A DNA stretch of 58,289 nucleotides from Bacteroidota bacterium (GCA_040901865.1 JBBDYD010000136.1:29912-88200), one strand, 5' to 3'; positions 20,394 through 49,889 are shown, numbered from the stretch's first letter. Numbers and translations are program-made. Notes: a model not told the origin generated them from the letters alone.

Positions 20394-21475
20394 AGAAACA
20401 ACGGCAGCGCGGGTTTCAGATAACGCTGGATGATATAGCAGAAAAACTCGGTGTTTCAAAAGTCTCAGTCTCAAAGGCACTGCGCGGCCACCCCGACATT
20501 TCCGCCGAAACAGCCTCAAAGATAAAAGAAACCGCACGCAAGCTCGGGTATTCACCAAACTTCATGGCGCGCAATCTTTCCTCCCGGCAGACCAACACCA
20601 TCGGCGTGGTTGTTCCCAAGATCGCACACCACTTTTTTGCCTCCGTCATCGAGGGGATCTACGACGCTGCCCTGCAGAACGGCTACGAGGTCATGCTCAC
20701 CGTGTCGCAGGAGAGTTCAGAGCGGGAGTTGCGGCATGTGAATTCTCTTCTCTCGATGCGGGTGGACGGATTGATCGTCTCCGTTTCCCAGCAGACGCGC
20801 GATTACACCGTGTTTGAGCATATCCGGGATATGGGGATGCCGTTGACCTTCATGGACCGCGTTCCGCCCATCAACGGATTTAACACGGTCGTAGCGGATG
20901 ACCGAGGGGGTGCGTTTGCCGCGACAGAACACATTTTAAATCTGGGATATCGGAAGATTGCGCACCTCGGAGGTTACCAGTATACGAGCATCGGGAAGGA
21001 GCGGGGCAGGGGATTTCTCGATGCAATGAAGAAGCGTGGGGTGAAGGTCCGCAAAGACTGGGTGGTGTACGGCGGATTTGACGAGAGCGAGGGGTACAAG
21101 GGATTCAAGGCGCTGTATGCGACCGGCGAACTGCCCGAAGTGATTTTCGCTGTGACGTTTCCGGTGGCGATTGGAGTTTACCGCGCCGTACAGGAAATGG
21201 GCATGAAGATTCCCGACGACGTCGACATTATTTGCTTCGGCAACAGCGGATTGAATCATCTGTTGTCTCCTTCCATGAGTTACGTGGAACAGCCGACGGC
21301 GGACCTGGGTCGAAGGGCTTTTGAAGTTACGTTGGAGAGCATCAGGAACAAGGGAACCCTTCCGCCGCAACATATCAAACTTCCAACGTCGCTCGTGCTT
21401 AATGAAACATGTACGAAGAAGAGCCAAGGCTCCTCGCGAGCCTGGCTGGGATCGCTGGGAAGGAAAGGGGCGTGA
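20390..21475 (+). CDS. LacI family transcriptional regulator
   Basis: N-terminal HTH ITLDDIAEKLGVSKVSVSKALRG.P.IS.ET...I...A.KLGY.PN..ARNL, followed by a periplasmic-binding-protein-like sugar-binding fold. Confidence 0.9.
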   Translation: MKKQRQRGFQITLDDIAEKLGVSKVSVSKALRGHPDISAETASKIKETARKLGYSPNFMARNLSSRQTNTIGVVVPKIAHHFFASVIEGIYDAALQNGYEVMLTVSQESSERELRHVNSLLSMRVDGLIVSVSQQTRDYTVFEHIRDMGMPLTFMDRVPPINGFNTVVADDRGGAFAATEHILNLGYRKIAHLGGYQYTSIGKERGRGFLDAMKKRGVKVRKDWVVYGGFDESEGYKGFKALYATGELPEVIFAVTFPVAIGVYRAVQEMGMKIPDDVDIICFGNSGLNHLLSPSMSYVEQPTADLGRRAFEVTLESIRNKGTLPPQHIKLPTSLVLNETCTKKSQGSSRAWLGSLGRKGA

Positions 21476-21501
21476 CAGTAGGAGGAGATTGGAAGCCGGA
21501 G

Positions 21502-21571
21502 GTCAGAGGTCAGAAGTCAGAAGTCAGAGGTCAGAAGTCAGAGGTCAGAAGTCAGAGGTCAGAAGTCGGAA
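21502..21571. repeat. Heptanucleotide tandem array (RGTCAGA)10
   Basis: Ten consecutive units of GGTCAGA/AGTCAGA, with the last unit AGTCGGA. Lies between the LacI stop and the receptor start. Confidence 0.95.
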
Positions 21572-21653
21572 ACAAGAGGGTCGATACTGTTACGGACAGC
21601 AGCATGATCCCCGGAGAAGTTTGGAAGTTCTCAACATCGGAATAAAGGACACC

Positions 21654-34952: not shown

Positions 34953-35780
34953 GTGAAGCCAATTGGAGAATCGTACGATTTCTCAAACCGCACCGTGGTG
35001 ATCACCGGCGGTACGGGTGTCCTGGGCCGCTCAATGGCTCTGTCACTTTCAGCCTGCGGAGCAAATGTTGCAGTGATTTCGAGAAACCCTTCGAAAGCAT
35101 CAGACCTTCTTGAGCAGGCAAAAAAGACCCGCGGGACGATGAAGGCCTTCGGGGCGGACGTTGTGGACAAGAAGGGCCTTGAGAAGGCGAACGCGGACAT
35201 CCTTGAAGCATTTGGGAAGATCGACTGCCTGATCAATGCAGCTGGGGGCAACAGCCCCATGGCCACGACCAATAACGATCGATCCTTCTTTCAGTTAAGC
35301 GAGCAGGGCCTGCGGGATGTTTCCGATCTCAACCTGCTCGGCACAATCCTGCCCTGCCAGGTGTTCGGTAAGGTGATGGCCGATAACAAAGAAGGCGTGA
35401 TCTTGAATGTGACGTCGGTTGCCGGTCTGCGCCCGCTGACTCGCGTTGCCGGGTACGCGGCCGCCAAAGCGGCGGTCAGTAATTTCACCCGATGGCTCGC
35501 CGTCACCATGGCGCAGGAGTTTTCTCCTGCCATTCGGGTCAATGCCCTGGCTCCCGGATTCTTTCTCACCGAGCAGAATCGGTTTCTACTGACCGATGAA
35601 AAAACGGGAGCGCTCACGGAGCGCGGCCAAAAAATCATCGCCCATACCCCCATGGGACGCTTTGGAAAGCCCGAAGACCTCAACGGCGCCGTTCTCTGGC
35701 TGCTTTCACCAGCATCCGAGTTCGTCACCGGAATTGTGGTGTTTGTCGATGGGGGATTCTCAGCGTATTCAGGCGTCTGA
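34953..35780 (+). CDS. SDR-type D-mannonate oxidoreductase / fructuronate reductase-like
   Basis: 275 aa. TGGTGVLG Rossmann motif, catalytic YAAAK, and the FFLTEQNR loop typical of the SDR UxuB/YjmF-like group. GTG start. Confidence 0.65.
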   Translation: MKPIGESYDFSNRTVVITGGTGVLGRSMALSLSACGANVAVISRNPSKASDLLEQAKKTRGTMKAFGADVVDKKGLEKANADILEAFGKIDCLINAAGGNSPMATTNNDRSFFQLSEQGLRDVSDLNLLGTILPCQVFGKVMADNKEGVILNVTSVAGLRPLTRVAGYAAAKAAVSNFTRWLAVTMAQEFSPAIRVNALAPGFFLTEQNRFLLTDEKTGALTERGQKIIAHTPMGRFGKPEDLNGAVLWLLSPASEFVTGIVVFVDGGFSAYSGV

Positions 35781-35787
35781 TGTCGTT

Positions 35788-36957
35788 ATGCTTAAACAAA
35801 AGCCCGTCATCGTTGTCAACCGCAGCACACCCTTCGCAGCGGAGGTTTTCGCGCATCTCGGTGAAGTGATCGCCCTCGAATCCGCCGAGGTGACGAACAA
35901 GACTGTCCGGGACGCCGATATTCTCATTGTCCGTTCGGAAACCAAAGTCGACAAAACGCTGCTCGAAGGCAGCCGGGTTCGGTTTGTCGGAACCGTCACG
36001 ATCGGAACGGACCACATCGATCGCAGCTACCTGAATTCCAAAGGCATCACCTTCGCCAGCGCTCCGGGCAGTAATGCCAATTCGGTTGCAGAATACGTCG
36101 TAGCCGGACTGCTCACATGGGTCGGCCGGACAGGTCAATCGCTGAAGGGAAAGACGATCGGCATCGTCGGGGTCGGGAACGTAGGGAGCAAAGTGGTGAA
36201 CGTCGTGCTAGCGCTCGGGATGATCCCCCTTCTGAATGATCCGCCGCGGGCCCGGAAGGAATCCGAATCATCCTTTCTTCCGCTCGACGAACTGATGAAT
36301 GCCGATTTCATCACACTGCACGTTCCGCTGGCAACGAGCGGGGATGACGCCACCCTTCATTTGTTCGACAAGCAGCAAATAGGCAAAATGAAGCGCGGGT
36401 CGGTGCTCATCAACACTTCGCGGGGAGCTGTTGTTGAGACTGCCGCACTGCAGAATGCACTTGCCTCCACTCACCTTTCAACCGCCATCCTCGATGTTTG
36501 GGAACACGAACCCGTCATCAACAAGGAACTCCTTGATCGCGTTATGCTCGGTACGCCGCATATCGCCGGCTATTCCCTGGACGGCAAACTAAACGCGCTG
36601 AAAATGGTGTACGAGGACGTTTGCAATTTTTTGGACGTTCAACCGGATTGGTCTGTGGATGCCGGCGCCCCGGAAGGGTCATCCCGCCTTCAGTTGCCTG
36701 CTCATCTGAAGAACGAGATGGCGTTGGCGTTTGCTGTCCGACAAGCGTATGATATTGAACTCGATGATTCCCTGTTGCGGGAAGCATCCGCGATTACCGA
36801 TGGCCGTCCGGGGGAACATTTTATGAACCTGCGGGCCGAGTATCGCATCAGGCGCGAATTTGGCAATTTTGAGGTCCAACTTTATCAGGTCGGGCCTGGT
36901 GCCGTCCTCCAACAACTTGGATTCAGGACGCTCGTACAGGAGACAGCGCGGCTGTGA
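35788..36957 (+). CDS. D-isomer-specific 2-hydroxyacid dehydrogenase, PdxB (4-phosphoerythronate dehydrogenase)-like
   Basis: 389 aa. GIVGVGNVGSKV NAD motif. PdxB-like N-terminal catalytic domain and an extra C-terminal domain. Start placed at the first ATG after the upstream stop. Confidence 0.65.
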   Translation: MLKQKPVIVVNRSTPFAAEVFAHLGEVIALESAEVTNKTVRDADILIVRSETKVDKTLLEGSRVRFVGTVTIGTDHIDRSYLNSKGITFASAPGSNANSVAEYVVAGLLTWVGRTGQSLKGKTIGIVGVGNVGSKVVNVVLALGMIPLLNDPPRARKESESSFLPLDELMNADFITLHVPLATSGDDATLHLFDKQQIGKMKRGSVLINTSRGAVVETAALQNALASTHLSTAILDVWEHEPVINKELLDRVMLGTPHIAGYSLDGKLNALKMVYEDVCNFLDVQPDWSVDAGAPEGSSRLQLPAHLKNEMALAFAVRQAYDIELDDSLLREASAITDGRPGEHFMNLRAEYRIRREFGNFEVQLYQVGPGAVLQQLGFRTLVQETARL

Positions 36958-38222
36958 GTACGATCGGAAAAGGGTCAGCAGAACAAGCGCTTTCAGATTC
37001 TGAGATCAGGGAGATCTGCTCCCTGGCCTTCTCAGCCCCGGTCTTTGAAGGAAAACGGGTTCTCGTTCTTATTCCGGACCACACCCGCCATGCGCGCATT
37101 GACCTGTTCTTTCACATTATCTGTGATCTCCTGATCAAGCGAACGAAGTCGCTGGATTTTCTTATTGCCACCGGCACGCATGCCGATATGGAGCCGGAGA
37201 GGATCTATCGGCATGTAGGGATCACGCAGGCCGAGCATCGGTCGAAGTTCGCGACTGTCCGTTTCTTCAATCATGAGCACCAAAACCCTGCTGCCCTGGC
37301 GGCGATCGGCACAATCCCTGCGGATGAAATCGAACAGGTCACCCGCGGAGTCTTTGCGGAGCCGCTGGAGATCACGGTCAACCGGAAGGTCCTCGAATAT
37401 GATCACGTGATCATCGTTTCGCCGGTTGTACCGCATGAAGCGATGGGGTTCGCAGGTGGAAACAAGTATTTTTTCCCCGGAATTGCAGGACTGAAAGTCA
37501 TTGAGACGTTCCACTGGCTCGGTGCCATACTCACCAATCCGGCTGTCAACGGCGTCAAAGACACGCCCACGCGGCGGCTGATCGAGCGAGCCGCTGAATT
37601 CATATCGACGCCTCGCACCTGTCTGGCGTTTGCCGTCGACGAACGCAACAACCCCCGGTGTTTATTCATCGGAGATCCGAAAGGAGCATGGTCCCGCGCT
37701 GCGGATTATTCTGCAAGCCTTCACATCAGCTATGTCGACAAACCGTATGAAACGGTGCTTGCGATCACCCCGGACCTTTATGAAGAAGTATGGGTGGGAG
37801 GAAAGGCGATGTACAAACTCGAACCAATCGTCGCCGACGGGGGAGAGGTGATTATTTACGGACCGCAGATCAAACAGATCTCGTTTGTCCATGAAAACGA
37901 CATTCGGCGAATCGGCTACCATGTCGTGGAGTATTTCACGAAGCAATGGGAGCGATTCAAGCATGAGCCGAAACTGATCCTGGCGCATTCGACGAACGTT
38001 CGGGGGATCGGAACATTTGCAGACGGGGTCGAGAGGCCTCGCATTAATGTCACGCTTGCCACATCCATTTCGGAGGAGATCTGCAAAAAGGTCAACCTTG
38101 GTTTTCGTGACTATCGCACAATCGACCTTAAGGCGTGGCGGTCAAAGAAGGATAAGAACACGATGGTTGTGGAGAATGCGGGGCAGAATTTATTTCGATT
38201 AAAGAACGGTCAAACACACTGA
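36954..38222 (+). CDS. LarA-like (DUF2088) nickel-pincer-nucleotide-dependent 2-hydroxyacid racemase/epimerase homolog
   Basis: 422 aa. ATGTH (His76) and PHEAMGFAGGNKYFFPGIAGLKVIETFH, with His161, Lys171 and His187 spaced 10 and 16 residues apart. This is the same spacing as His174/Lys184/His200 of L. plantarum LarA. GTGA overlap with the upstream gene. Confidence 0.75.
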   Translation: MSTIGKGSAEQALSDSEIREICSLAFSAPVFEGKRVLVLIPDHTRHARIDLFFHIICDLLIKRTKSLDFLIATGTHADMEPERIYRHVGITQAEHRSKFATVRFFNHEHQNPAALAAIGTIPADEIEQVTRGVFAEPLEITVNRKVLEYDHVIIVSPVVPHEAMGFAGGNKYFFPGIAGLKVIETFHWLGAILTNPAVNGVKDTPTRRLIERAAEFISTPRTCLAFAVDERNNPRCLFIGDPKGAWSRAADYSASLHISYVDKPYETVLAITPDLYEEVWVGGKAMYKLEPIVADGGEVIIYGPQIKQISFVHENDIRRIGYHVVEYFTKQWERFKHEPKLILAHSTNVRGIGTFADGVERPRINVTLATSISEEICKKVNLGFRDYRTIDLKAWRSKKDKNTMVVENAGQNLFRLKNGQTH

Positions 38223-38261
38223 CCGGGCGGTTTTCGACGACTGATTTCTAAAGGAGCTATA

Positions 38262-39344
38262 ATGAGTAACGATCTGAAGATCCCAAGTACCGGAGCCCTT
38301 GATTTTGTTTCTCTGGGAGCTCTTGTCCACCGTCTGGATCCCGGGATCATACCGTTCCGCAAGGCAAGTTCCTGTTCGATTCACGTCAGTGGAGGCGAAT
38401 TCAACGCGGCGGCGAACCTCGCAGACTGCTTTCGAATGAACACAGGGATCGCAACCGCCATGGTTGATTATCCGATCGGTGATCTGATTGCCGAACGGGT
38501 GCGGGCAATGGGAGTGAAGCCGTTCTACAAGCATTTCAAGCACAATGGCGTGACCGGGCCGAACATGGCGACGGTGTATAGCGACCGAGGGCATGGTGTT
38601 CGGGGTCCTGTGGTGTTTTACAACCGAAGCAACGAAGCGGCGGCGCAGTTGAAACCGGGTGATTTCGACTGGAAAACCATATTCGCGGGTGGTGTGCGAT
38701 GGTTTCACAGCGGCGGGATCTTCGCGGCCCTGTCGGAATCAACGGGCGAAGTGATCGTTGAGGGCATGAAGGCGGCCAAGAAGGCCGGTGCGATCGTGAG
38801 CTTCGATCTCAACTTCCGCGAAAAACTCTGGAACCTTTGGGGCGGACAGAAAAAAGCCGTGGAAGTGATAGCGAAAATCGTGGAACATTGTGACGTGCTC
38901 GTGGGAAACGAGGAGGATCTGCAAAAAGGCCTCGGCATTGCCGGGCCCGAAGTGGAAGCGAAATCCAAACTCGATCCCGGCACGTTCTTCGGGATGATTG
39001 GCAAAGTGACGGCAAAATATCCGCAGGTCAAAGTCGTAGCGACAACTTTGCGGGAAGTGCACTTGACGAATCATCACAGCTGGAGTGCCGTGGCCTGGGT
39101 TGACGGGAAAACCTATTCAGCACCTACCGCAGAACTCGACGTCATAGACCGGGTCGGCGGAGGAGACGGATTTGCGAGCGGATTCTTCTACGGCTTGCTG
39201 GCTGGAGAATCCCCGGAAGAAGCAGTGAAACTCGGATGGGCGCACGGAGCACTTCTCACCACGTTTCCCGGCGACACAACAATGTCCACCGTCGAACAAG
39301 TCCGCGCCTTTGCAAAAGGCGGCTCTGCGAGAATACAGAGGTAG
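38262..39344 (+). CDS. kdgK: PfkB family sugar kinase, probable 2-dehydro-3-deoxygluconokinase
   Basis: 360 aa. GGEFN.A, a C-terminal DRVGGGDGFASGF ATP/anion-hole motif, and the hexuronate operon context. Confidence 0.7.
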   Translation: MSNDLKIPSTGALDFVSLGALVHRLDPGIIPFRKASSCSIHVSGGEFNAAANLADCFRMNTGIATAMVDYPIGDLIAERVRAMGVKPFYKHFKHNGVTGPNMATVYSDRGHGVRGPVVFYNRSNEAAAQLKPGDFDWKTIFAGGVRWFHSGGIFAALSESTGEVIVEGMKAAKKAGAIVSFDLNFREKLWNLWGGQKKAVEVIAKIVEHCDVLVGNEEDLQKGLGIAGPEVEAKSKLDPGTFFGMIGKVTAKYPQVKVVATTLREVHLTNHHSWSAVAWVDGKTYSAPTAELDVIDRVGGGDGFASGFFYGLLAGESPEEAVKLGWAHGALLTTFPGDTTMSTVEQVRAFAKGGSARIQR

Positions 39345-39346
39345 GA

Positions 39347-39460
39347 TTGGTGTAAGGTAATAGTTACTAGTTATTAGGTATTGGTGGATTGCTGTTCACC
39401 GTTTACCGTTCACGGTTTACTATTCACTACTCTTCACTCTTTACTCTTCACCCTTCACCA
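39347..39460. repeat. Two-armed heptanucleotide array (about 16 units)
   Basis: AGGTAAT AGTTACT AGTTATT AGGTATT ... CACCGTT TACCGTT CACGGTT TACTATT CACTACT CTTCACT CTTTACT CTTCACC CTTCACC. The right arm is the reverse complement of the AGTGAAG/AGTAAAG family seen at 19129. Confidence 0.9.
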
Positions 39461-39473
39461 TTGAGATACTCAT

Positions 39474-40928
39474 ATGCCCTCAAAAGCTGACATAGGCCTG
39501 GTAGGACTCGCCGTCATGGGAGAAAACCTCGTCTTGAACATGGAAAGCCGTGGATTCACGGTTGCTGTTTTCAATCGTACTGTCGATAAAGTCAATCAGT
39601 TCGTTCAGGGAAGGGGAAAAGGAAAGAACGTCATCGGAGCCAAATCAATTCCTGAACTTGTACAATCCCTTAAAAAACCCCGCAAGATCATGCTGATGGT
39701 CAAAGCGGGAAAACCCGTGGACGACCTCATTGGTCAGCTTCTGCCGCATCTCGAACAAGGGGATATTGTGATCGATGGGGGAAACTCACATTTCCCCGAT
39801 ACCATTCGCAGAACAAAATACCTCGAAGAGAAAGGGATGTTATTCATCGGTACCGGAGTTTCAGGCGGCGAAGAAGGGGCCTTACGCGGTCCTTCGATCA
39901 TGCCGGGAGGTTCGTCGGCCGCGTGGCCGCATGTAAAGCCCATCTTCCAATCCATTGCCGCAAAGGTGGAGGACGGAACCCCGTGCTGCGACTGGGTTGG
40001 TGAAAACGGGGCGGGACATTTTGTGAAGATGGTGCACAACGGAATCGAGTACGGTGACATGCAGCTCATTTGCGAGGCCTATCAGATCATGAAGGAGCTG
40101 CTGGGGATGAACGCGGGTGAAATGCATGAAGTCTTCAAACAGTGGAATACGGGTGATCTGGACAGCTATCTGATCGAGATCACACGCGACATCCTGGCGC
40201 ACAAAGATGATGACGGCAGTGCTCTTGTTGACAAGATCCTCGATACTGCGGGACAGAAAGGAACGGGGAAATGGACGAGTGTCTCGGCGCTGGATCTTGG
40301 AATCCCGTTGACGCTGATCAGCGAAGCCGTGTACGCACGGTGCCTCTCGGCAATGAAAACTGAACGTGTTGCGGCTGCCAAAGTGCTGAACGGCCCGAAA
40401 CCGGTGTTCACCGGTGACCGCGCGACTTTCCTGCGGGATCTGGAACATGCTCTCTATGCGTCGAAGATCGTCTCGTACGCTCAGGGGTTCACGCTGCTTC
40501 GCTCAGCGGCGGCTGAGTTCAAGTGGGACTTGAAGTATGGTTCCATCGCACTGATGTGGCGGGGCGGATGCATCATTCGGTCGGCATTTCTCGGCAAGAT
40601 CAAGGAGGCATTCGACAGAAATCCCGATCTGGCGAACGTTCTGCTCGATTCATTCTTCAGGCAGAAGATCGAGGAGTCTCAGGCGGCATGGCGGAGGGTG
40701 ATCGCGGCGGCAGTTCTCAACGGTATCTGGATCCCGGCGTTCTCCACAGCGTTGAATTACTTCGACGGGTACAGAAATGCCCGCCTTCCGGCAAACCTGT
40801 TGCAGGCTCAGCGCGATTACTTCGGCGCTCATCAGTACGAACGGATAGATAAGCCTGTCGGGGAATTTTTCCACACGAATTGGACGGGTCGCGGCGGAGA
40901 AACGGCTTCAACGGCGTACGTGGCCTGA
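39474..40928 (+). CDS. gnd: 6-phosphogluconate dehydrogenase (decarboxylating)
   Basis: 484 aa. IGLVGLAVMGENL.LN..S.GF, DGGNS.F.DT.RR, GTGVSGGEEGA..GPS.MPGG and HFVKMVHNGIEYGDMQLI are canonical Gnd blocks. Confidence 0.93.
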   Translation: MPSKADIGLVGLAVMGENLVLNMESRGFTVAVFNRTVDKVNQFVQGRGKGKNVIGAKSIPELVQSLKKPRKIMLMVKAGKPVDDLIGQLLPHLEQGDIVIDGGNSHFPDTIRRTKYLEEKGMLFIGTGVSGGEEGALRGPSIMPGGSSAAWPHVKPIFQSIAAKVEDGTPCCDWVGENGAGHFVKMVHNGIEYGDMQLICEAYQIMKELLGMNAGEMHEVFKQWNTGDLDSYLIEITRDILAHKDDDGSALVDKILDTAGQKGTGKWTSVSALDLGIPLTLISEAVYARCLSAMKTERVAAAKVLNGPKPVFTGDRATFLRDLEHALYASKIVSYAQGFTLLRSAAAEFKWDLKYGSIALMWRGGCIIRSAFLGKIKEAFDRNPDLANVLLDSFFRQKIEESQAAWRRVIAAAVLNGIWIPAFSTALNYFDGYRNARLPANLLQAQRDYFGAHQYERIDKPVGEFFHTNWTGRGGETASTAYVA

Positions 40929-41029: not shown

Positions 41030-41455
41030 CTATCTCTTGAGCTCCGCCACGGTGAGACTTTCCACTTCGAGGTGCGGATGGGAGATGGCTTCCTTGATTG
41101 TCCGCAAACGGGTCTCGGAAAACCACTGAACATCCAGCCCGTTCAGTTCCGCCACAAGCTTGAGCCAATCTTCTTCCGACTGATGGATCTCATTGTCTGA
41201 AAAAGCCAGTACGAGGCCATCCTGCACAAACTTCGTTGCAAGGTCTTTGGACGAGAACTTCGGGGGCTGATCCCTGACATGTTCATTCTCCAAAATTCCC
41301 TTGATGGCTTGATCGCAGAACTCTTCCTCAAACCCCAACGCTTTTCCGATCCGCTTCATGAGTTGAACTTCCGATTCAGTGACCTTGCGGTCCTTTCTGA
41401 TGAGCAGAAGAAGTCCCTTGAAATAACTGCTGGCGTCGATAGCGGAGATGTTCAT
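41030..41455 (-). CDS. Small cytoplasmic protein, possibly TerB-like fold
   Basis: 141 aa, helical. Two repeated segments with E.E...L..I...LG. The family assignment is tentative. Confidence 0.35.
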   Translation of the reverse strand: MNISAIDASSYFKGLLLLIRKDRKVTESEVQLMKRIGKALGFEEEFCDQAIKGILENEHVRDQPPKFSSKDLATKFVQDGLVLAFSDNEIHQSEEDWLKLVAELNGLDVQWFSETRLRTIKEAISHPHLEVESLTVAELKR

Positions 41456-41493: not shown

Positions 41494-42066
41494 TCATGGA
41501 TGCGATCTTGTGTAGCCATCGGTCATGGTACCAGAAGCCGATGTTTGCAGAGTATTCGTACACTGCACACAAAACGATGAGGACTTCAAATCGACTTCTT
41601 CGACACCGCTCGACGAGTGCATGACACATTCGAAGTCTCTGCAATGTACAAGGCCGAACGCATGACCGAGTTCATGCACGGCTTCCTTGATCATCCGCTC
41701 CTCGAAACGCCGCGGATTTGCCGGCAGGCCGTAAAGAGTGTCATCGAGGCGAAACGTCGATATGATAGCGGCCTTGCCGTCAAGCTGGGCTTCACCAAAC
41801 ACATAGGTAAGCACCGGAATATACAAGTCCTCCTCTGTCACGGCAAGTACTTTGCCGCGATGCGATGAAAACATCCGAACGAGGCTTGAAAGCAGGAGCG
41901 TTGAATAATACTGGTTTCTGGAGGGGTCGAACGCGAAGGCGGGATCGATGCGGTTCGACGTGTCCCTGACGACGGGCATGGAGAAGGATTCATTGATCCC
42001 CGTGGTTACGGCGAAAAGGTGCCCGGCGGGAACGGAGCCTATGGGTACCACCATGATGGAAGCCAT
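41494..42066 (-). CDS. Archaemetzincin-like zinc metallopeptidase (M54 family)
   Basis: HELGHAFGLVHCRDFECVM...CVQC fits the archaemetzincin signature HEXXHXXGX3CX4CXM...CXXC. Confidence 0.75.
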   Translation of the reverse strand: MASIMVVPIGSVPAGHLFAVTTGINESFSMPVVRDTSNRIDPAFAFDPSRNQYYSTLLLSSLVRMFSSHRGKVLAVTEEDLYIPVLTYVFGEAQLDGKAAIISTFRLDDTLYGLPANPRRFEERMIKEAVHELGHAFGLVHCRDFECVMHSSSGVEEVDLKSSSFCVQCTNTLQTSASGTMTDGYTRSHP

Positions 42067-42069
42067 GGA

Positions 42070-43434
42070 TCACGGTTTCTTCAAACCAAACTTCGCGATT
42101 TTGTTATAGAGGGTCACCCGGTCGATATCCAGCATCTCCGCGGACCTCGTGATGTTCCATCCGTTGCGGTGCAGGATATTCTCGATGTGAACCTTCTCGA
42201 TCGCTTCCAGCGTGTCCCCGTTCGGCGCGGCATGGGTCTGGGCGAGCTGAAATGGCAGGTCTGTCGACTTGATGGAAGGGGGCTTTGCCAGCACCATGGC
42301 CCGCTCAATGACATTCTCCAGTTCCCGCACGTTGCCGGGCCATGGATAGCGGATAATCAGATCCAGCGCGGCCGCATCGATCTCCTTCACCGGTTTGTTC
42401 ATGATCGTCGAGTACTTCTGCACAAAATGTTGAACCAGTGGAGGTATGTCCGACCGGCGCTCCCGCAGCGGTGGCAACGACACGGTGAACACATTCAGCC
42501 GGTAGTACAAATCCTCCCGGAACGCTCCTTCCTTCACGGCTTGCTCCAGGTCCCGGTTGGTTGCGCAAATTACTCTGAAATCACTCTTGATCGGCTCGCT
42601 TCCTCCCACTCGAGTGAATTGGTGGCTCTCGATCACGCGCAAGAGCTGAACCTGCATCTTGGGTGTGATCGTGCCGATCTCGTCGAGAAAAATCGTCCCA
42701 CCATCCGCAAGTTCGAATTTTCCCTTTCTCTTGTACTGAGCTCCGGTGAAGGCGCCCTTTTCGTGGCCAAAGAGCTCGCTCTCCAGAAGGCTCTCCGGTA
42801 CCGCTCCGCAATTCACTGGAATCAACGGAAAATATCTCCGGTTGCTGTTGATATGGATCGTGCGCGCGATCAATTCCTTCCCCGTGCCGCTCTCCCCGCG
42901 GATCATGACGGTCGTGTCGGTTTGCGCAACGCTTGTGGCGAGTTCCACCACTTTTTTTATCTGTGGACTTTCACCAATCAGGTCATCGGGTGTCAGGAGT
43001 GTGGAAAGATGTTCCCGCAGACGGACATTCTCCTTGGAAAGGTTCTTGTGCCGAAGAGCGTTCTGAACGAGATGCGATAGATGATCGGGATCGACCGGCT
43101 TCGTGACATAGTCGAACGCTCCCTCTTTCAGGGACTGGACCGCGCTTTCCACAGAGGCAAACGCGGTGATCATGATGATAGCAGCGGCCTTATCGATTTC
43201 GTGAATCCGCTTCTGAAGCTCAAGTCCGCTCATGCCGGGCATTTTGATGTCGAGGAGAATAACGTCCCAGGGGCCCTTATCCAGAAGCTTGAGAGCGCCG
43301 GCCGCATTCTCCGCGGCTTCAACACGGTAACCGTCCTGGCGGAACCATTTGGTTAAGGAATCCCTGACGACAAATTCGTCGTCGACAATGAGAATTCCGG
43401 ATCGGTTGTTTGAGTTCGTTTCCATAGCGGTCAT
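42070..43434 (-). CDS. Sigma-54-dependent response regulator (NtrC family)
   Basis: Receiver domain (ILIVDDE...DVILLDIKMPG). AAA+ domain with GESGTGKE and the GAFTGA loop (EKGAFTGA). C-terminal Fis-type HTH. Confidence 0.92.
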   Translation of the reverse strand: MTAMETNSNNRSGILIVDDEFVVRDSLTKWFRQDGYRVEAAENAAGALKLLDKGPWDVILLDIKMPGMSGLELQKRIHEIDKAAAIIMITAFASVESAVQSLKEGAFDYVTKPVDPDHLSHLVQNALRHKNLSKENVRLREHLSTLLTPDDLIGESPQIKKVVELATSVAQTDTTVMIRGESGTGKELIARTIHINSNRRYFPLIPVNCGAVPESLLESELFGHEKGAFTGAQYKRKGKFELADGGTIFLDEIGTITPKMQVQLLRVIESHQFTRVGGSEPIKSDFRVICATNRDLEQAVKEGAFREDLYYRLNVFTVSLPPLRERRSDIPPLVQHFVQKYSTIMNKPVKEIDAAALDLIIRYPWPGNVRELENVIERAMVLAKPPSIKSTDLPFQLAQTHAAPNGDTLEAIEKVHIENILHRNGWNITRSAEMLDIDRVTLYNKIAKFGLKKP

Positions 43435-45068
43435 CCAGTCTGTTCAACGTGATCTGGTGCTTGTGCGACAGGCGGTTCAAGAGGGGTCGGAAAAATGATC
43501 GAGAAGGTCGTCCCCTCGTTTCGTTTCGATTGTACGTCGATGGTCCCGCCGTAACGCTGAACGATTCCGTGCACAACTGCCAACCCCAGCCCGGTACCCT
43601 TCCCCTGATCTTTGGTCGTAAAGAACGGTTCAAAGATCCGCGGAATGTCCTCTTCGTTAATTCCGCACCCTGTGTCACGCACTATCAATTCGATCCCGTT
43701 CTGCGCGTTCCTAAAAACAACGCTCAGATCCCCGCCTTCGGGCATTGCCTCGACTGCATTCATCATGAGGGCAAGCAGGGCCTGCTCGATTTGGGCGGCG
43801 TCACAGATCATAACCACCGGACGTTCGCTGAGTTTCACCACAAGGCGAATGGAGTTCATTTTCAGATGGTGGTCGATGAGCTTCAGACTTCGCTGAACAA
43901 TTGCCCGGAGGTCCTCTTCTTTTTGCACCCCCACACGCTGCTTCGAGAACAAGAGGAGGTTCGTAACAATCGCCCCGCAGCGTGCGGTCTCGTCGGCAAT
44001 TAACGTCAGCTCTTCATGAACCTCCGCCGCGGCCTCCGGTGAAAGCGCGATGCCGGCTGTGATTTTCTTTCGAAGGAGTTTCGCATACGTCAGGACGCCC
44101 TCGAGCGGATTATTCAGCTCATGAGCGACGGTTGCCGCGAGTTGACCAAGGGAAGCCATCTTTTCCACGTGAATCATATTTTGCTGTGCCCTGCGCAGTT
44201 CGTCCGTTTTGGCGGCGACCCGGAATTCGAGCGTCTCAGTCCATTCGTCGATTTCCTTCCGTGCCCGTTGCAGTTCACCCGTCATCTGATTGAAGGATTG
44301 AGCGAGCGCTCCGACTTCATCGGTGGAGCGGACCGGGATGCGATGAGCAAGATTTCCTCTCATAATCTCTGCGGTTCCCAGCGTGAGCTGACGTGTCGGG
44401 ATGTTGACCATGAGCCAGATGAAAATGCCTGTGATGGAACTGACCGCTGCCACCAGAAACAGAGCAAGGAGGATTTGTTCCTGCGTTGTTTCTGCCATTG
44501 CCGCTTCAACATCGGTGAGCGGAAGCATCACATCAAGGACGCCCAGAACCGTCTGGTCCGCATCGTGGGCATGGCAGTCCGCCGTTGAGCATGAAGTTTC
44601 GTTGTAGATCGGTGTGATCATTCCGAGGACACCGTGGCCACGGGGAGATTGAAATACGCGGGTGAGTTCCGTGAGATTGAGCGAGCTTGGCGGCAGGTCC
44701 GATCCGTGACAGACGTTGCATGCCTCAGCATTCATATCCACAACACTGCCAACCTGGGAACTGTCGGTCGAAAATGAAATCACGCCCTGCTTGTTGTAGA
44801 TCCTGATCGTCTCAATGCCCGGCTCGTTTCCAATGGTCTTGATGATCTGATAAATGTCTTCGCGGCGATTCAGAAGCATACTGTAGTGCGTCGAGCGCTT
44901 GATCACATCGCTCGTACGCGCCGCCGTTTTGACAGCGATGCTCATGTGGCGGTTCGTCTGCCACCCGACGTTCAGTGTCGTGAAAAGGGCAGTTCCGGCA
45001 ACCATCACGGAAAGGACGATGACAAAAAGGCGAAAGCCGAGAAGTTTGGTGAAGTTCATGCTCAACAT
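43431..45068 (-). CDS. Sensor histidine kinase with periplasmic domain carrying two c-type heme-attachment motifs
   Basis: TM1, a periplasmic segment of about 160 aa, then TM2-HAMP-HisKA (VAHELNNPL)-HATPase. CNVCH is encoded at 44706-44720 and CSTADCH at 44571-44591, both between the two TM helices. Confidence 0.85.
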   Translation of the reverse strand: MLSMNFTKLLGFRLFVIVLSVMVAGTALFTTLNVGWQTNRHMSIAVKTAARTSDVIKRSTHYSMLLNRREDIYQIIKTIGNEPGIETIRIYNKQGVISFSTDSSQVGSVVDMNAEACNVCHGSDLPPSSLNLTELTRVFQSPRGHGVLGMITPIYNETSCSTADCHAHDADQTVLGVLDVMLPLTDVEAAMAETTQEQILLALFLVAAVSSITGIFIWLMVNIPTRQLTLGTAEIMRGNLAHRIPVRSTDEVGALAQSFNQMTGELQRARKEIDEWTETLEFRVAAKTDELRRAQQNMIHVEKMASLGQLAATVAHELNNPLEGVLTYAKLLRKKITAGIALSPEAAAEVHEELTLIADETARCGAIVTNLLLFSKQRVGVQKEEDLRAIVQRSLKLIDHHLKMNSIRLVVKLSERPVVMICDAAQIEQALLALMMNAVEAMPEGGDLSVVFRNAQNGIELIVRDTGCGINEEDIPRIFEPFFTTKDQGKGTGLGLAVVHGIVQRYGGTIDVQSKRNEGTTFSIIFPTPLEPPVAQAPDHVEQTG

Positions 45069-45092: not shown

Positions 45093-45108
45093 GTCAATTC
45101 CTGTGCCA
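45093..45108 (-). promoter_or_regulatory. Candidate sigma-54 promoter (TGGCAC-AGGAA-TTGAC)
   Basis: The minus strand reads TGGCACAGGAATTGAC about 25 nt upstream of the kinase ATG. The -24 element is perfect. The -12 element is GA instead of GC. Confidence 0.3.
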
Positions 45109-45228: not shown

Positions 45229-46002
45229 CTAGTTCCTGAGAGGAATAAACAGCCGCGCCAGCAGGGCGAAAGCGGCAGGGCCGACCATTTCGAATGGTGA
45301 GCGAATGGGGAATCCGCCGTCCAATGCGCTCGGGCCGATGTCGGGCCGGGAGTGCAGACGTGAAGAAATCTCGTCCTTTAGTCTTAGAAGTTCTCGTGCG
45401 ACTGATTGTGCATTTTCGGACGCAGATCTCCCCTCAGAGAACTTTCCGCTGCTCGCATCAACAAATGCCTTGACAACCCACCCCCGGGTATAGGGCTTAT
45501 CCGCCAACAGAGCCGGATTGGTTGCGAGCTCCTGGTTATACTGAATAACGGTTCCATCGAAAGGCGATGAGATGCCGATGGTACCCTCATCATGCACCAG
45601 CCAACAGCAGGGTGAGTGGCGCACGAGGTGCGTGGGATGATGGGGGAGAACGATCGCAGCAAGCGGTCCGACAAGTGATGCAGCAACATGGTCGAGGCCG
45701 ATGGTGATCGAGGTATCGTCTTCATGCCGGATCCAGAGATGGCCGGAAACATACGTTCGGTCTCCCGGAAATTGCAACGGATCAAACGAAGAGAAATACC
45801 GATCGAGCGCAGTAACGGTCATGTCGGGTAGCGGATCGATCGCCGCGACATTGCTCACATTGGCGTCAAACACAGGGCGGCGCATGATGGCGTCAAAGGC
45901 GCATTCATCACACCGAAACTCCATGTCGCAAAGTTTGCAGGCCACCACTCCCGCGTCCATCCAGATGCACCGCGAGGGCTGATCCGTGTGTTTTGTTGTC
46001 AT
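45229..46002 (-). CDS. Cys-rich N-terminal domain fused to a GcvH-fold (glycine cleavage H-like) domain, unknown function
   Basis: Start at ATG 46002, preceded by GAGGAG. N-terminus CIWMDAGVVACKLCDMEFRCDECAFD. The central segment GHLWIRHEDD.SITIGLDHVAA...SSPFDGTVIQYN resembles GcvH. My hand alignment places Glu at the lipoyl-Lys position. Confidence 0.6.
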   Translation of the reverse strand: MTTKHTDQPSRCIWMDAGVVACKLCDMEFRCDECAFDAIMRRPVFDANVSNVAAIDPLPDMTVTALDRYFSSFDPLQFPGDRTYVSGHLWIRHEDDTSITIGLDHVAASLVGPLAAIVLPHHPTHLVRHSPCCWLVHDEGTIGISSPFDGTVIQYNQELATNPALLADKPYTRGWVVKAFVDASSGKFSEGRSASENAQSVARELLRLKDEISSRLHSRPDIGPSALDGGFPIRSPFEMVGPAAFALLARLFIPLRN

Positions 46003-46029
46003 GGCATGCTCCTCATTCAACGGACAAAT

Positions 46030-47211
46030 CTATTTAAGTGCTTCATGGTACGACACGACATCGTATTGCGGAACGTCTTTCGGAGTCGGCTCGTCGGTCG
46101 CGTGCTCAAAAATCGGAAGGTGCTTCACTGCGAGCCGAAACGCTGCGAATCCCAACGCGATGACCATCAGCGTCACGGAAACTTCCATCCAGGACGGGAA
46201 ATAGTTCATCCCCGAATATCGTTCAAGAGCTGTGACGCTCAAATTCATGCGGTTCATGATGAATCCAAGCACGACGAGCAGCGAAATCGCAAAGAGCCCG
46301 GTCCGGGTTTGCCGGATTCGTTTGATCGAAATAAGCGTGATAGGAACCGCCACGCCGAGGAGGATCTCGCTCAGATAAAGCACGGACTCGGTATTGAACG
46401 TCAGCAAATACGGCATCAGCTGATAGGCCATGATGTCCTGGACCTTCAGCACCAGATACACGGCAAGAGCCACACCGCTTACCTTGGCAAGCTGGCTGAG
46501 GATCGGAACCTCGATCTCGCGCTTGAAGGCCCTGAAGCTCAGGAATGACTCAATCGTGACCATGGCAGGCCCCACCGCAACCGCCGTCAGGAAAAAGAGA
46601 TACGGGAGACTTGAAGAATACCAAAGCGGATACACCTTCTCGGGAACAATCAGAAAAAGTGATCCGAGAGATGATTGGTGGAGGGATGAAAGAATCACAC
46701 CGAGGATCACAAGGGGAATCGAGATCGCGTGAATGGCTTTCTTTGCCCAGCCCATGTTCAGCCGTTCAAAGACGACAGGGCTGAACTCGAGGGCGAGCAC
46801 CGTGGAGTAGAGCATCACGCACCACCCGACCTCGAACATCACTGACTTCGGATTCCACATGATGATCGGGTGCCAGACGTTCCAGGGCTTTCCCAGGTCA
46901 TACATCAATGCGAAAACGACAAGGATGTACCCGAGGAATGCCGTCAGGACGGCGGGGCGAAGAATCGGCTTGTAGCGGTCGAGATTGAAGATGTACACCG
47001 ATGCCGCGACGACAAATCCGCCGGCGGCCAGTCCCACTCCGCACAGAATGTCAAATCCGATCCAGAGCCCCCAGGGGAACGCGTCGCTCAGATTGGTTGA
47101 AGCTCCGAGGCCCTGGGTGAATCGAATGAATGTCGAAACGAGGCCGGCCGAAACAATGATCCAGAAGGTGGTTCCCCAAAAGGTAAACCGTGGGAGTCGT
47201 AAGGCGCGCAT
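46030..47211 (-). CDS. NrfD/PsrC family polytopic membrane protein (quinone-interacting subunit)
   Basis: 393 aa with about 10 predicted hydrophobic helices. W.WPI..Y.F-like N-terminal segments (AFPWGLWIGFDILCGVGLAAGG) typical of NrfD/PsrC/HybB/DsrP proteins. Adjacent to the 4Fe-4S subunit gene. Confidence 0.8.
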   Translation of the reverse strand: MRALRLPRFTFWGTTFWIIVSAGLVSTFIRFTQGLGASTNLSDAFPWGLWIGFDILCGVGLAAGGFVVAASVYIFNLDRYKPILRPAVLTAFLGYILVVFALMYDLGKPWNVWHPIIMWNPKSVMFEVGWCVMLYSTVLALEFSPVVFERLNMGWAKKAIHAISIPLVILGVILSSLHQSSLGSLFLIVPEKVYPLWYSSSLPYLFFLTAVAVGPAMVTIESFLSFRAFKREIEVPILSQLAKVSGVALAVYLVLKVQDIMAYQLMPYLLTFNTESVLYLSEILLGVAVPITLISIKRIRQTRTGLFAISLLVVLGFIMNRMNLSVTALERYSGMNYFPSWMEVSVTLMVIALGFAAFRLAVKHLPIFEHATDEPTPKDVPQYDVVSYHEALK

Positions 47212-47223
47212 GAAATTCCTCCG

Positions 47224-48012
47224 TTATTCAGATAATTGATTGTGACCGTTCTTGCCGTTTTGCCGCTCCTGCAGCTTGAGCAACGCGGCTTCGTATGCCT
47301 GTACCTCTGTTCGCCTGTTCGTGATCCACCAAATACCGGCGAGTAATGTGCTGCCCCAGAAAACGTAGTTGGGGATTTTCGAGAGAATCGCCCATGTAAG
47401 CGTGGGAAGTGGATGATCCGGCAGATTGGTTTTCATGCCGAGCTGTTCGAACGGTTTCGGTGAAAGGAAAATCACCGACGTGCCGCCTGCTTCCTTGACT
47501 CCATAGATGTGGTTCTCATACATTCCGGGATCGGCCGCGATCCTGTTCTTTGCCTCCAGGATCAATTCATCGAGCGGGCCAAAGATACGCGCCTCTGTGG
47601 GGCATGATTCCACGCATGCCGGCTTCTCGCCCTTCTTGATCCGATCGTAGCACATGTCGCATTTTCGGACTTCCGGATTCAAACTATGCCACTGGTATGT
47701 CGGAACATCAAACGGGCATGCCTGGAGGCAATACCGGCAGCCCATGCATTTGTCCGCGTCGTAAATCACCGGCCCCTCGGGCGTTTTTTCGAATGCCCCG
47801 ACCGGACAGACGGAAGCGCAGGTGGGTTCGGCACAGTGCATGCATTGAACAGGGACGTAAACGTCGTCAACCTGCCGCACGGCCGTGTTGCGAATCTCCG
47901 ACAGCTTATGGACGTCGGAGGTAGGGTTGCCCCAGCGCTCCGAGCAGGCTTCTTCGCATGCGTAACAACCCACACATCGTGTGATGTCGATGAGAATTCC
48001 GTGGCGGGTCAT
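47224..48012 (-). CDS. NrfC/PsrB/HybA-like four-cluster [4Fe-4S] protein with C-terminal TM helix and no visible Tat signal
   Basis: Cys groups CVGCYACEEAC, CMHCAEPTCASVCP, CMGCRYCLQACP and CDMC...CVESCP. C-terminal hydrophobic helix LLAGIWWI. The N-terminus MTRHGILIDITRC lacks a twin-arginine leader. Confidence 0.85.
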   Translation of the reverse strand: MTRHGILIDITRCVGCYACEEACSERWGNPTSDVHKLSEIRNTAVRQVDDVYVPVQCMHCAEPTCASVCPVGAFEKTPEGPVIYDADKCMGCRYCLQACPFDVPTYQWHSLNPEVRKCDMCYDRIKKGEKPACVESCPTEARIFGPLDELILEAKNRIAADPGMYENHIYGVKEAGGTSVIFLSPKPFEQLGMKTNLPDHPLPTLTWAILSKIPNYVFWGSTLLAGIWWITNRRTEVQAYEAALLKLQERQNGKNGHNQLSE

Positions 48013-48713
48013 TGTCGGGACTCCTTACGATCCGGGGTTTCCGATGACAGAATGAACGAGCGATTGAACTGATCCCAAGCCTTGTCGTCCGTCAAACGGA
48101 GAACACCAGCGACGGGAACACCGCCGTCTGCGAGCGTGACCCCGGCCGGAAGTGCGTTGCTGCGGGAAGTATACTCGGCAATAAATTCTTTGAACCTGCG
48201 GATTTCACCGCGAAGCCAATGTGACGCCGCGCCGGCAATGGCGGACGAGGGAAGTTCGGCGGCCAGATTCGCGGGTTCCATGACGGCAATCCAACCCGAT
48301 CCATAGGGGTCGGCATTGATGCCGGAAGCGTCTTCCAGAACTTCTTCATTCAATTCCAGCAATGTCCCCGTGAGCGGAGCCGGAATCGTCAGCATGCGTT
48401 CGCCCTGGCGAAGTGTTACCAGGGGGTCGCCCTTGCGGACGGTGCTGCCGACCGGTTGCGGAGAAATACCGTCAAACGATCCGACGAGCTTTTGCACGAA
48501 GTCATCCAGGCCGATCCGGGTTTTTCCGGAGGCAAGGACCTCGATCCAGGCATGCCCCTTGCTGAGGAAAAATCCCTTTGGAATAACGAATCGATCGAGA
48601 AGCAACGGAGTTCGGATCGGGACCGTTGCCTGATGTTTTCGGGCAGCACGCTGCACGAAGAAGTCGATGACAACGAATGTTATGATTGTGAGGAGAACGA
48701 AGAGAGCAACCAT
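48009..48713 (-). CDS. Membrane-anchored GcvH-fold protein, unknown function
   Basis: Start at MVALFVLL, preceded by GGAGG. One N-terminal TM helix followed by basic residues. The GHAWIEV...GKTRIGLDDFVQKLVG...PAPLTGTLLELNE segment is GcvH-like, with Glu at the expected lipoyl-Lys position by hand alignment. Confidence 0.6.
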   Translation of the reverse strand: MVALFVLLTIITFVVIDFFVQRAARKHQATVPIRTPLLLDRFVIPKGFFLSKGHAWIEVLASGKTRIGLDDFVQKLVGSFDGISPQPVGSTVRKGDPLVTLRQGERMLTIPAPLTGTLLELNEEVLEDASGINADPYGSGWIAVMEPANLAAELPSSAIAGAASHWLRGEIRRFKEFIAEYTSRSNALPAGVTLADGGVPVAGVLRLTDDKAWDQFNRSFILSSETPDRKESRQ

Positions 48714-48781
48714 GATAACCTCCGGTGTTTCACTTGTGCCTTGTTGAGCGTCGTTTGAACCTCTGATGTACCCGGAATATC

Positions 48782-48797
48782 TCCAAGAACCGTGCCA
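48782..48797 (-). promoter_or_regulatory. Candidate sigma-54 promoter (TGGCAC-GGTTC-TTGGA)
   Basis: The minus strand reads CTGGCACGGTTCTTGGAG about 70-85 nt upstream of the ATG at 48713. The -24 TGGCACG is perfect. The -12 element is GG instead of GC. Confidence 0.35.
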
Positions 48798-49031
48798 GCC
48801 TCTAAAGGGATGGTCTATTTGGTGCAAGCGTAAACCGTTGATATGCTGAAACTTGGGGGGGAGAAATCAAGAGACCAGAAGACCGCTAGCTCTGATAAGG
48901 AGTGATCGTTGAAGATTTCAGCGCAGAAAGCATGGAAAAGGCGGGAATTCTCTACAGGGCAATGAGATGGGGAGTGTTGAAAGAATGAACGGTCGTTGAG
49001 GTATTATTCAACGGTTAGGGGGCTCTGAACG

Positions 49032-49055
49032 AAAAAAAACCCCGCAAATGCGGGG
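49032..49055 (-). terminator. Rho-independent terminator of the lipoprotein gene
   Basis: The minus strand reads CCCCGC-ATTT-GCGGGG followed by TTTTTTTT, about 30 nt after the stop at 49087. Confidence 0.8.
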
Positions 49056-49086
49056 CCTTCTGAGTGACTCGAATTCTTCCTGTTTG

Positions 49087-49767
49087 TCAGGTGCAAACAG
49101 CCGTAGCTCCTTCGCCCGTCCATGTCGCATGATATCCCGTTTCAACCCATGCGCTTCCACTCCACATGGACTCAGTGATTTCCCCTGAACCATTGGGATT
49201 GGCGATGAGGATAATCCGTGTATCCGCCGTTCCGCCGGAAAAGTTGTCAATAGTGGCTTCAGTAGCCCCCGATGAGAGCGTTTGCCAGGAGATATTCATC
49301 GATGGGGTCTGGGAAGAAGGGTCAGAATCGTCGTAGATTGTCAGAGCACCTGATTTTCCATCCGAACTCGAATTTCCCTCGAGCAATTTCCAATCGGAAT
49401 ACGTCTGTTGCGACGATGTATCGGTTCCGTTCCATAGGAGCAGCCACTGAATACTGTCGTTCGACTGGCGCTGCGAAGTCAGTGTAAGGGTCGTCCCATT
49501 CAGCGGGAACTGCGATGTCCAGACTCCGTTGATATTCTGACCGGGGAGCAATCCAAGAATTGAAGCGGATTGAAGCAAGGACTTAATCGAACTCACGTAG
49601 GCATACGCTGGGCCGCCGCATGTATCTGTTGCCTGAGCGGGGGCTGTGAGGGCAAACGTCGGAAATTTCGGTTGTGTTTCAGTCGGTTCTGTGGACTTTT
49701 TTGAGCATCCTGTAAAGACACTTCCCGTCAATACTATGACGACTAACAATCGTTTGGACGTCAACAT
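49087..49767 (-). CDS. Lipoprotein of unknown function
   Basis: Start MLTSKRLLVVIVLTGSVFTGC (lipobox), preceded by GAGGAG. Ser/Thr-rich mature part. No motif recognised. Confidence 0.55.
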   Translation of the reverse strand: MLTSKRLLVVIVLTGSVFTGCSKKSTEPTETQPKFPTFALTAPAQATDTCGGPAYAYVSSIKSLLQSASILGLLPGQNINGVWTSQFPLNGTTLTLTSQRQSNDSIQWLLLWNGTDTSSQQTYSDWKLLEGNSSSDGKSGALTIYDDSDPSSQTPSMNISWQTLSSGATEATIDNFSGGTADTRIILIANPNGSGEITESMWSGSAWVETGYHATWTGEGATAVCT

Positions 49768-49889
49768 TAGAACTACTCCTCGTTTGATGAATGGATGAAT
49801 ATGGTCGCTTAATAAATATACAAAAAGAAGAGGTTCTTTGGAACGAAGAGACACTGGCCTTCCTTTTGTAATCCGTGTTTTCCTTGAGT

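Follow-up and report, generated by a model that had tools for sequence, protein, structure and literature searches.

In a 58,289-nucleotide stretch of DNA from a Bacteroidota bacterium (GCA_040901865.1 JBBDYD010000136.1:29912-88200; the whole stretch is referred to as the window), four adjacent minus-strand genes may encode a membrane module of the HybAB/HmcBC type for redox-regulated electron transfer, with two new cytoplasmic accessory subunits. We put this reading forward tentatively, and the function of the whole module is predicted from sequence analysis. Anaerobic respiration makes wide use of NrfD-type modules as a building block. To our knowledge, each one described so far works with a peripheral partner, either catalytic or a cytochrome, and has an Fe-S subunit exported through the twin-arginine translocation (Tat) pathway. 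The locus examined here encodes an Fe-S subunit (FeS) and an NrfD-family membrane protein (NrfD), flanked by two GcvH-fold proteins (G1 and G2).

The genes encode, in order of transcription, G1 (48009-48713; a GcvH fold anchored by a transmembrane (TM) helix; Pfam GCV_H, 1e-19), FeS (47224-48012; a four-cluster Fe-S subunit resembling HybA and HmcB; Pfam Fer4_11, 1e-25), NrfD (46030-47211; a HybB/HmcC-type membrane subunit; Pfam NrfD, 7e-22), and G2 (45229-46002; a Cys4 head and a GcvH fold; Pfam GCV_H, 1e-15). A preliminary description of this DNA had reported four tightly packed minus-strand genes with these coordinates and family types, and open reading frame (ORF) and Pfam analyses bear it out in each respect. 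The G1 stop codon overlaps the FeS start codon in an ATGA (48009-48012), whereas the gaps between FeS and NrfD and between NrfD and G2 are 12 nt and 27 nt. A sigma54-type -24/-12 box, TGGCACGGTTCTTGG, with one mismatch to TGGCAC-N5-TTGC, is located at 48783-48797 on the minus strand, 70 nt upstream of the G1 start codon, and a GGAGG lies 6 nt 5' of ATG 48713. Together, the tight packing and the conserved upstream box are consistent with the single operon proposed earlier. A longer, TTG-started G1 ORF (to 48827) was rejected: the sigma54 box would fall inside it, indicating that ATG 48713 is the likely start, and all orthologues begin with MVALF.

Using a genome scan with one genome per species, we found a G1 relative in 397 genomes. 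The best 80 of these, all metagenome-assembled, form the 80-locus set (individual loci carry L numbers below); their taxon labels are mostly Bacteroidota, Ignavibacteria, and Kryptoniota, with Blastocatellia, Calditrichota, Poribacteria, and further groups among the others. A census of gene content was restricted to 56 informative loci with enough DNA. All seven genes of an extended set, namely G1, FeS, NrfD, and G2 followed by a sensor histidine kinase, a sigma54 regulator, and an archaemetzincin, are present in 46 of the 56; G2 accompanies G1 in 55, and the archaemetzincin is found in 50 (at the same position in L004 and L006-L008). Gene order is identical in dozens of genomes at protein identities of 35-60%, an arrangement far beyond chance. 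The seven genes thus travel together across phyla, with sigma54-type boxes before G1 and the kinase gene, and the co-occurrence of the four core genes, which had been named as a check on the first description, recurs across related loci. Homologue searches returned 136 matches for G1, and only few close relatives (22 matches) for G2.

All-against-all clustering of the ORFs in the 80 loci shows no further universally conserved neighbour and no catalytic subunit, but only lineage-specific DeoC, phosphoesterase, and BNR genes. The earlier statement that no catalytic subunit is encoded therefore stands for the window and most related loci, but not for every lineage: c-type cytochromes are added in L015, L068, L074, and L085 (in L068 as a tetrahaem gene with a Sec signal inside the cluster), and L082 has an FdnG-like gene. 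Tandem TM-anchored G1 paralogues precede FeS-NrfD in L074 (9249-9926 and 9992-10720), which has no recognisable G2, and in L067 (5148-5792 and 5850-6533), where G2 is downstream of NrfD.

Downstream of G2 on the same strand, a haem-sensor kinase and sigma54 activator pair had been described, and Pfam typing agrees. The sensor histidine kinase (43431-45068, minus strand) contains a TM helix, a periplasmic domain, a second TM helix, and HAMP, HisKA, and HATPase domains; its periplasmic domain carries CxxCH and Cx4CH motifs that are conserved in 16 aligned orthologues. The NtrC-type response regulator (42070-43434, minus strand) is composed of receiver (REC), sigma54 AAA+, and HTH_8 domains (Pfam Sigma54_activat, 4e-72). 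The archaemetzincin (Peptidase_M54; 41494-42066, minus strand; Pfam 1e-24, 87.6 bits versus 24.4) is co-oriented and 3' of the regulator, and has the motif HExxHxxGxxxC...CxxC as HELGHAFGLVHC...CVQC. A second sigma54-type box (TGGCACAGGAATTGA, 45094-45108, minus strand, one mismatch) is present just upstream of the kinase gene. L001 and L004 keep the positions of both boxes, and the one upstream of G1 is there an exact TGGCAC-N5-TTG. Since the strict pattern alone matched only 13 of the 80 loci, we scored matches to TGGCAC-N5-TTGC: at least 8 of 10 positions agree upstream of G1 in 43 of 80 loci, compared with 7 of 80 control windows, and a strict or relaxed match is found upstream of the kinase gene in 20 of 57 loci. 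With REC, AAA+, and HTH domains in the regulator and putative -24/-12 boxes at its target genes, the locus is predicted to be under NtrC-type sigma54 regulation.

G1 is predicted to contain an N-terminal TM helix (N-out), a GcvH-fold domain, and a helical extension at the C-terminus in which a DGG loop is invariant. Its N-terminal MVA is nearly invariant, as are F5 and V6 in a 25-sequence subset. G2 contains a Cys4 head, a GcvH-fold domain, and a C-terminal DGG extension as in G1. AlphaFold2 (AF2) models of both proteins match GcvH with Foldseek TM-scores of 0.85-0.94 and root-mean-square deviations of 1.2-2.7 A. The G1 model has a predicted local distance difference test (pLDDT) score of 84 and TM-scores of 0.91-0.94; the G2 model exceeds 90 in the core and falls below 50 in the Cys4 head, so that no fold can be assigned to the head. 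When aligned with hhalign, the G1 and G2 families match over 185 columns (probability 99.95, E 1e-38), including the C-terminal extension with its invariant L-x-D-G-G, indicating that they are paralogues.

We located the lipoyl-Lys column by HMMER alignment onto solved GcvH chains. Both proteins have Glu in this column (..RQGERML.. in G1 and ..VHDEGTI.. in G2), as an alignment by hand had suggested in the preliminary description. Among 108 G1 relatives, the column holds G in 53, E in 16, N in 8, D in 8, and K in 8, and the next column R in 67 and K in 39. It is E or D in the G2 clade (FCB-type), and distant 302-residue deltaproteobacterial G2 relatives retain the Lys. Neither protein reaches the GcvH equivalogs (TIGR00527/NF002270), with 62/48 bits for G1 and 55/55 for G2 against cut-offs of 117/116. 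Because the AF2 models superpose on GcvH and the Lys column varies, the fold is that of GcvH but classical lipoylation is no conserved property, and the sequences indicate that G1 and G2 cannot be classical lipoyl carriers. GcvH, GcvH-L of the SirTM/macrodomain system, and LbpA share this fold; unlike them, G1 and G2 have no lipoyl Lys and no conserved hairpin tip, and contain parts beyond GcvH, namely the TM helix or Cys4 head and the family-specific C-terminal DGG extension. The N-terminal barrel-sandwich domains of NqrA and RnfC are cofactor-less, lipoyl-like structural parts of membrane redox complexes. Several relatives with TM-REC-GcvH architecture also match Pfam NQRA (PF05896), and the homology of NqrA and RnfC to G1 and G2 is no closer than the shared fold class.

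Both GcvH-like domains are predicted to be cytoplasmic. A basic stretch directly follows the N-terminal helix of G1, which had suggested a cytoplasmic domain in the preliminary description, and in abundant relatives of TM-REC-GCV_H architecture this helix is followed by an inserted receiver domain, which argues for the same location. G2 lacks a signal peptide, and cytoplasmic proteins share its Cys4 head. The conserved ligand set of this head is C12-x12-C25-x5-C31-x2-C34. Of the metal-binding motif CX9CX2CX5CX2C described earlier, the Cys ligands at 12, 25, 31, and 34 are thus retained, and C22 has to be dropped because it is not conserved.

FeS has the properties of a HybA/HmcB-type subunit, with 16 Cys residues in four CxxCxxCxxxC-type groups that would ligate four [4Fe-4S] clusters (13/16/19/23, 57/60/65/69, 89/92/95/99, and 118/121/133/137) and a TM anchor at the C-terminus. 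Apart from the first ~35 residues of E. coli HybA, which it lacks, it is colinear with that protein; its anchor aligns with that of HybA, and it has a conserved juxtamembrane basic tail, W-I-T-N-R-R. A sequence match to PDB 1kqf_B was found at 1e-27. In NCBIfam, which we used with its curated cut-offs for equivalog typing (Pfam serving for domain typing), the best matches are HmcB (NF045715; 256.5, cut-off 420) and HybA (NF008134; 194.3, cut-off 263), both below cut-off. The FeS ORF cannot be extended at its 5' end, and only 12 residues precede its first Cys, leaving no room for a Tat leader. In ~65 orthologous loci, mostly 12-35 open codons precede the first CxxCxxC, and none has an RR leader. 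The twin-arginine leader reported missing at the outset is therefore indeed absent; a hidden leader or a longer FeS ORF was rejected on the same evidence. We thus predict that FeS is a HybA/HmcB-type four-cluster wire with a canonical C-tail anchor and no Tat leader. Since a basic segment follows its C-terminal helix, as in HybA, the tail should be inside and the Fe-S domain outside, and we regard a periplasmic Fe-S domain as somewhat probable.

Leaderless Fe-S proteins with a C-tail anchor can hitchhike through Tat on a neighbouring partner with a Tat leader (bioRxiv 10.1101/2023.11.02.564894). Hitchhiking subunits such as FdnH, with FdnG, or the partner of periplasmic FeFe hydrogenase resemble FeS in being leaderless, in having a C-terminal anchor, and in their expected periplasmic topology. 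However, FdnH-type subunits are always encoded beside a partner with a Tat leader, and none was found here in ~70 loci, the FdnG-like gene near L082 excepted. In L082 (8801-12055), G1-FeS-NrfD-G2 is followed by mobA-like, fdhD-like, and fdhE-like genes and then by the Tat-leader FdnG-like gene (MSISRRGFFKMAG...), whose product may be the carrier on which the leaderless FeS of that genome hitchhikes.

NrfD belongs to the NrfD family (PF03916; 78.8 bits versus a gathering threshold of 25.8), has 10 predicted TM helices, and is colinear end to end with E. coli HybB, with which it shares the motifs GLG..L..FPWG.WI.FD, HQSS.GSL, and YFP.W. Its best NCBIfam matches are HmcC (NF045714; 342.3, cut-off 550) and HybB (NF008133; 299.8, cut-off 450), again below cut-off, and a PDB sequence search returned no match at E<=0.01. 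The predicted cytoplasmic segments contain 20 Lys and Arg residues versus 5 in the periplasmic segments, and loop conservation in 62 orthologues is 0.76 on the periplasmic side versus 0.53 on the cytoplasmic side. In L074 and L085, NrfD has an 11th helix that leads into a cytochrome c domain with three or ~10 haems, and since multihaem cytochrome c matures only in the periplasm, this C-terminal fusion must be periplasmic. The colinearity with HybB, the charge distribution, and the cytochrome fusions together rule out an inverted NrfD, indicating that it is a HybB/HmcC-type quinone-interacting subunit in the canonical N-in/C-in orientation.

According to the mechanism that we tentatively favour, the kinase would sense the periplasmic redox state or a ligand via two c-type haems and phosphorylate the NtrC-type regulator, which would activate the sigma54 promoters of its own operon and of G1-FeS-NrfD-G2. 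Like HmcBC, NhcBC, and HybAB, FeS and NrfD would transfer electrons between the menaquinone pool and c-type cytochromes in the periplasm. G1 would bind via its N-terminal helix beside NrfD and the FeS tail, and G2 via its Cys4 metal or redox module; on the cytoplasmic face, the two would serve as regulatory or adaptor subunits that tune the complex or report on it, and would perform no catalysis. The weakest step of the proposal is the passage of FeS to the periplasmic face, for which we assume either hitchhiking with a Tat substrate encoded elsewhere or a route not yet described.

Several observations weigh against this mechanism. The association of G1 and G2 with FeS-NrfD is one that we infer only from synteny and translational coupling. 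The window contains no cytochrome partner gene, and a scan across it found no ORF with a Tat leader or multihaem motifs; a Tat-leader partner is present in almost none of the 80 related loci, so that no export route for FeS can be seen. L094 encodes leaderless and Tat-leader HybA-like paralogues side by side, which makes loss of the leader look like a purposeful, specific trait of the G1/G2-linked version. Finally, four of the 56 informative loci have lost FeS and NrfD only and keep G1, G2, the kinase, the regulator, and the archaemetzincin, indicating that G1 and G2 can work without an adjacent NrfCD pair.

A first alternative is the suggestion of the preliminary description that the module faces the cytoplasm. 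FeS would then stay inside with G1 and G2, as in SoeABC, the Cys4 head of G2 would feed electrons to FeS, and quinone exchange would proceed via NrfD. This arrangement is compatible with the leaderless FeS of ~65 loci and the absence of a Tat partner nearby, with the predicted cytoplasmic location of G1 and G2, with the Tat-leader paralogue that sets the leaderless state apart as a distinct trait within one genome, and with the deltaproteobacterial G2 relatives, which adjoin cytoplasmic NAD(P)-linked formate dehydrogenase (FDH)-like enzymes. SoeABC is the proposed N-side precedent: a leaderless Fe-S subunit is paired with an NrfD-family subunit, SoeC, for which an inverted orientation is assumed and which acts together with a molybdopterin subunit (PMC8076601). 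The leaderless Fe-S/NrfD pairing is alike, but NrfD is canonical here and the window contains no molybdopterin gene. NrfD is not inverted by charge, by HybB colinearity, or by its 11th-helix cytochrome fusions; its constrained face is the periplasmic one; the strongly basic segment after the FeS C-terminal helix puts the tail inside and the domain outside, as in HybA; and an N-side Fe-S subunit would be too distant from the family's P-side quinone site (PMC8076601). The idea of a cytoplasm-facing module thus survives for G1 and G2, fails for NrfD with its HybB-like orientation, and probably fails for FeS with its HybA-like C-tail, and as a description of the whole module we consider it unlikely.

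The preferred reading of G1 and G2 as accessory subunits draws on the other proteins in which their domains occur. A profile of the Cys4 head, which no Pfam or NCBIfam model covers, finds 989 representative proteins, in which one to four copies precede GCV_H, two copies lie at the C-terminus of response regulators or at the N-terminus of a soluble histidine kinase, or the domain forms stand-alone peptides. The GcvH-like domain also serves as a response-regulator output, in REC-GCV_H and TM-REC-GCV_H proteins (>120 proteins at >58% identity), whose genes always lie beside NrfCD modules in the loci examined. A sister system in L015, L093, and L094 consists of Tat-leader FeS-NrfD-cytochrome c3-dihaem kinase-REC-GCV_H-TM-REC-GCV_H and adjoins a G1 gene or an entire G1-FeS-NrfD-G2 cluster. 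Because both domain types of G2 are found fused to receiver or kinase domains, they appear to be modules of signalling proteins, which favours G1 and G2 as cytoplasmic regulatory or adaptor subunits rather than catalytic or carrier proteins.

Some neighbours of these families are recorded here in their own right. A macro-domain gene lies directly 3' of the REC-GCV_H and TM-REC-GCV_H genes (L093, 11203-11724; L094, 11285-11806). Firmicutes have an ADP-ribosylation operon of GcvH-L, SirTM, and macrodomain genes, which this arrangement recalls. The deltaproteobacterial G2 relatives (L003, L090, and L092, 8001-8909), 302 residues long with two Cys4 heads, always precede an FDH-like fusion, Fer2_4-Fer4_20-Pyr_redox_2-Molybdopterin; in L090 and L092 the fusion gene is split, perhaps at a selenocysteine codon. 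The surrounding genes include MoaE, one with an AIRS domain that may be SelD, and those of an ABC transporter whose PBP_like_2 binding protein may take tungstate or molybdate, and L003 has a TGGCAC-N5-TTG box upstream. This FDH-like neighbourhood suggests that the G2 family also accompanies other redox enzymes.

A second alternative is that G1 and G2 belong with the haem kinase and the sigma54 regulator, as connectors or accessories in signalling, with FeS-NrfD as co-regulated cargo and no four-protein complex. The most invariant core of the locus is indeed G1, G2, kinase, regulator, and archaemetzincin, and the four loci without FeS-NrfD retain it; both G2 domain types are fused elsewhere to REC or kinase modules, and the N-terminal helix of G1 is conserved even in L047, a locus without NrfD. 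However, G1-FeS-NrfD-G2 also occurs without kinase, regulator, and archaemetzincin genes nearby, in L067, L071, L073, L082, and the minus-strand cluster of L094. The G1 stop overlaps the FeS start, FeS-NrfD lies precisely between G1 and G2 in most lineages, and REC-GcvH proteins too adjoin NrfCD modules, so a purely signalling role is doubtful. Some maturation proteins of redox enzymes, FdhE among them, typically have a Cys-rich head, and we know of no chaperone with a GcvH fold. That G1 and G2 are dedicated to the escort, maturation, or insertion of FeS, making up for its absent Tat leader or keeping it ready for assembly into the membrane like FdhE/HybE-type chaperones, is highly improbable: the leaderless state co-occurs with G1 and G2, the Cys-rich head recalls FdhE (an FdhE-like gene is present in L082), and the conserved W-I-T-N-R-R of FeS could be a docking site, but G1 also adjoins a Tat-leader FeS (L015), G1 and G2 occur without FeS, and domains shared with response regulators are a better fit to signalling.

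The favoured electron-transfer module was compared with known systems. E. coli hydrogenase-2 HybA/HybB is colinear with FeS and NrfD and alike in its four Cys groups, anchor, basic tail, and charge pattern; unlike it, this locus has no hydrogenase genes, no Tat leader on FeS, and two flanking GcvH-fold genes. The cytochrome c:quinone modules HmcB/HmcC and NhcB/NhcC of Desulfovibrio are a second likeness, HmcB and HmcC giving the best NCBIfam scores here, and some lineage variants carry a fused or adjacent multihaem cytochrome c, as with HmcA and NhcA. In contrast to Hmc and Nhc, a cytochrome subunit and any HmcE/HmcF-type cytochrome b or HdrD module are missing from the window, and HmcB has a Tat leader where FeS has none. 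The module would work like HybAB or HmcBC/NhcBC, yet it falls outside them by score, leader, and partner genes. Literature searches on GcvH with NrfD, or GcvH-like proteins with quinone and membrane, and on archaemetzincin with sigma54 or kinase returned nothing relevant, and a paper on the Desulfovibrio sigma54 regulome contains no match to this gene set. The preliminary description knew of no characterised equivalent, and we likewise found none in the literature, solved structures, or curated families. A bolder view is that G1 and G2 represent a new class of non-lipoylated GcvH-fold proteins that pass two-component signals to NrfD complexes, combined with a leaderless HybA-like subunit exported without a Tat leader or co-encoded carrier, via its C-tail NRR motif or via G1 and G2; as a whole, this is improbable. 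As pure speculation, the archaemetzincin might act on the L-x-DGG loop of G1 and G2, which is flexible and invariant.

The surroundings of the locus are as follows. A GC-rich hairpin with a T-run (49031-49060, minus strand), read by eye at the 3' end of an upstream lipoprotein-like gene, marks the 5' boundary of the transcription unit; a consensus scan for terminators and promoters gave nothing above shuffles, and the hairpin is absent from its list. The lipoprotein-like ORF (..LTGSVFTGCSKK..; 49087-49854, minus strand) lies just upstream and has no Pfam or NCBIfam match; weak relatives are found upstream of G1 in L010, L013-L015, and L020. A TerB-like protein of 141 residues (41030-41455, minus strand; Pfam TerB, 3.5e-6) is encoded 3' of the archaemetzincin, and its gene is conserved only in L012, the closest relative examined. 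The remaining window (9577-12459; 21321-24641 and 35596-40928, both plus strand) is ordinary for Bacteroidota/Ignavibacteria, with SusC/TonB-type receptors (CarboxypepD_reg and Plug), a 2-hydroxyacid dehydrogenase, a Lar_N protein, a PfkB kinase, and a 6-phosphogluconate dehydrogenase-like ORF, and it contains no respiratory genes.

The variant described here breaks both rules of NrfD-type modules, that of the peripheral partner and that of the Tat-exported Fe-S subunit, and adds two cytoplasmic look-alikes of lipoyl carriers, in ~400 species-level genomes from uncultured groups. It defines two uncharacterised modules, the Cys4 domain with ~1000 relatives and the GcvH-plus-DGG extension, and provides the first conserved bacterial context for archaemetzincin. 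Should the Fe-S subunit prove cytoplasmic, the family's accepted architecture would have to be revised; should FeS be exported without a leader, this would represent a new targeting mode. And if G1 and G2 do regulate the complex, they would form a direct and new link between two-component signalling and a respiratory complex.

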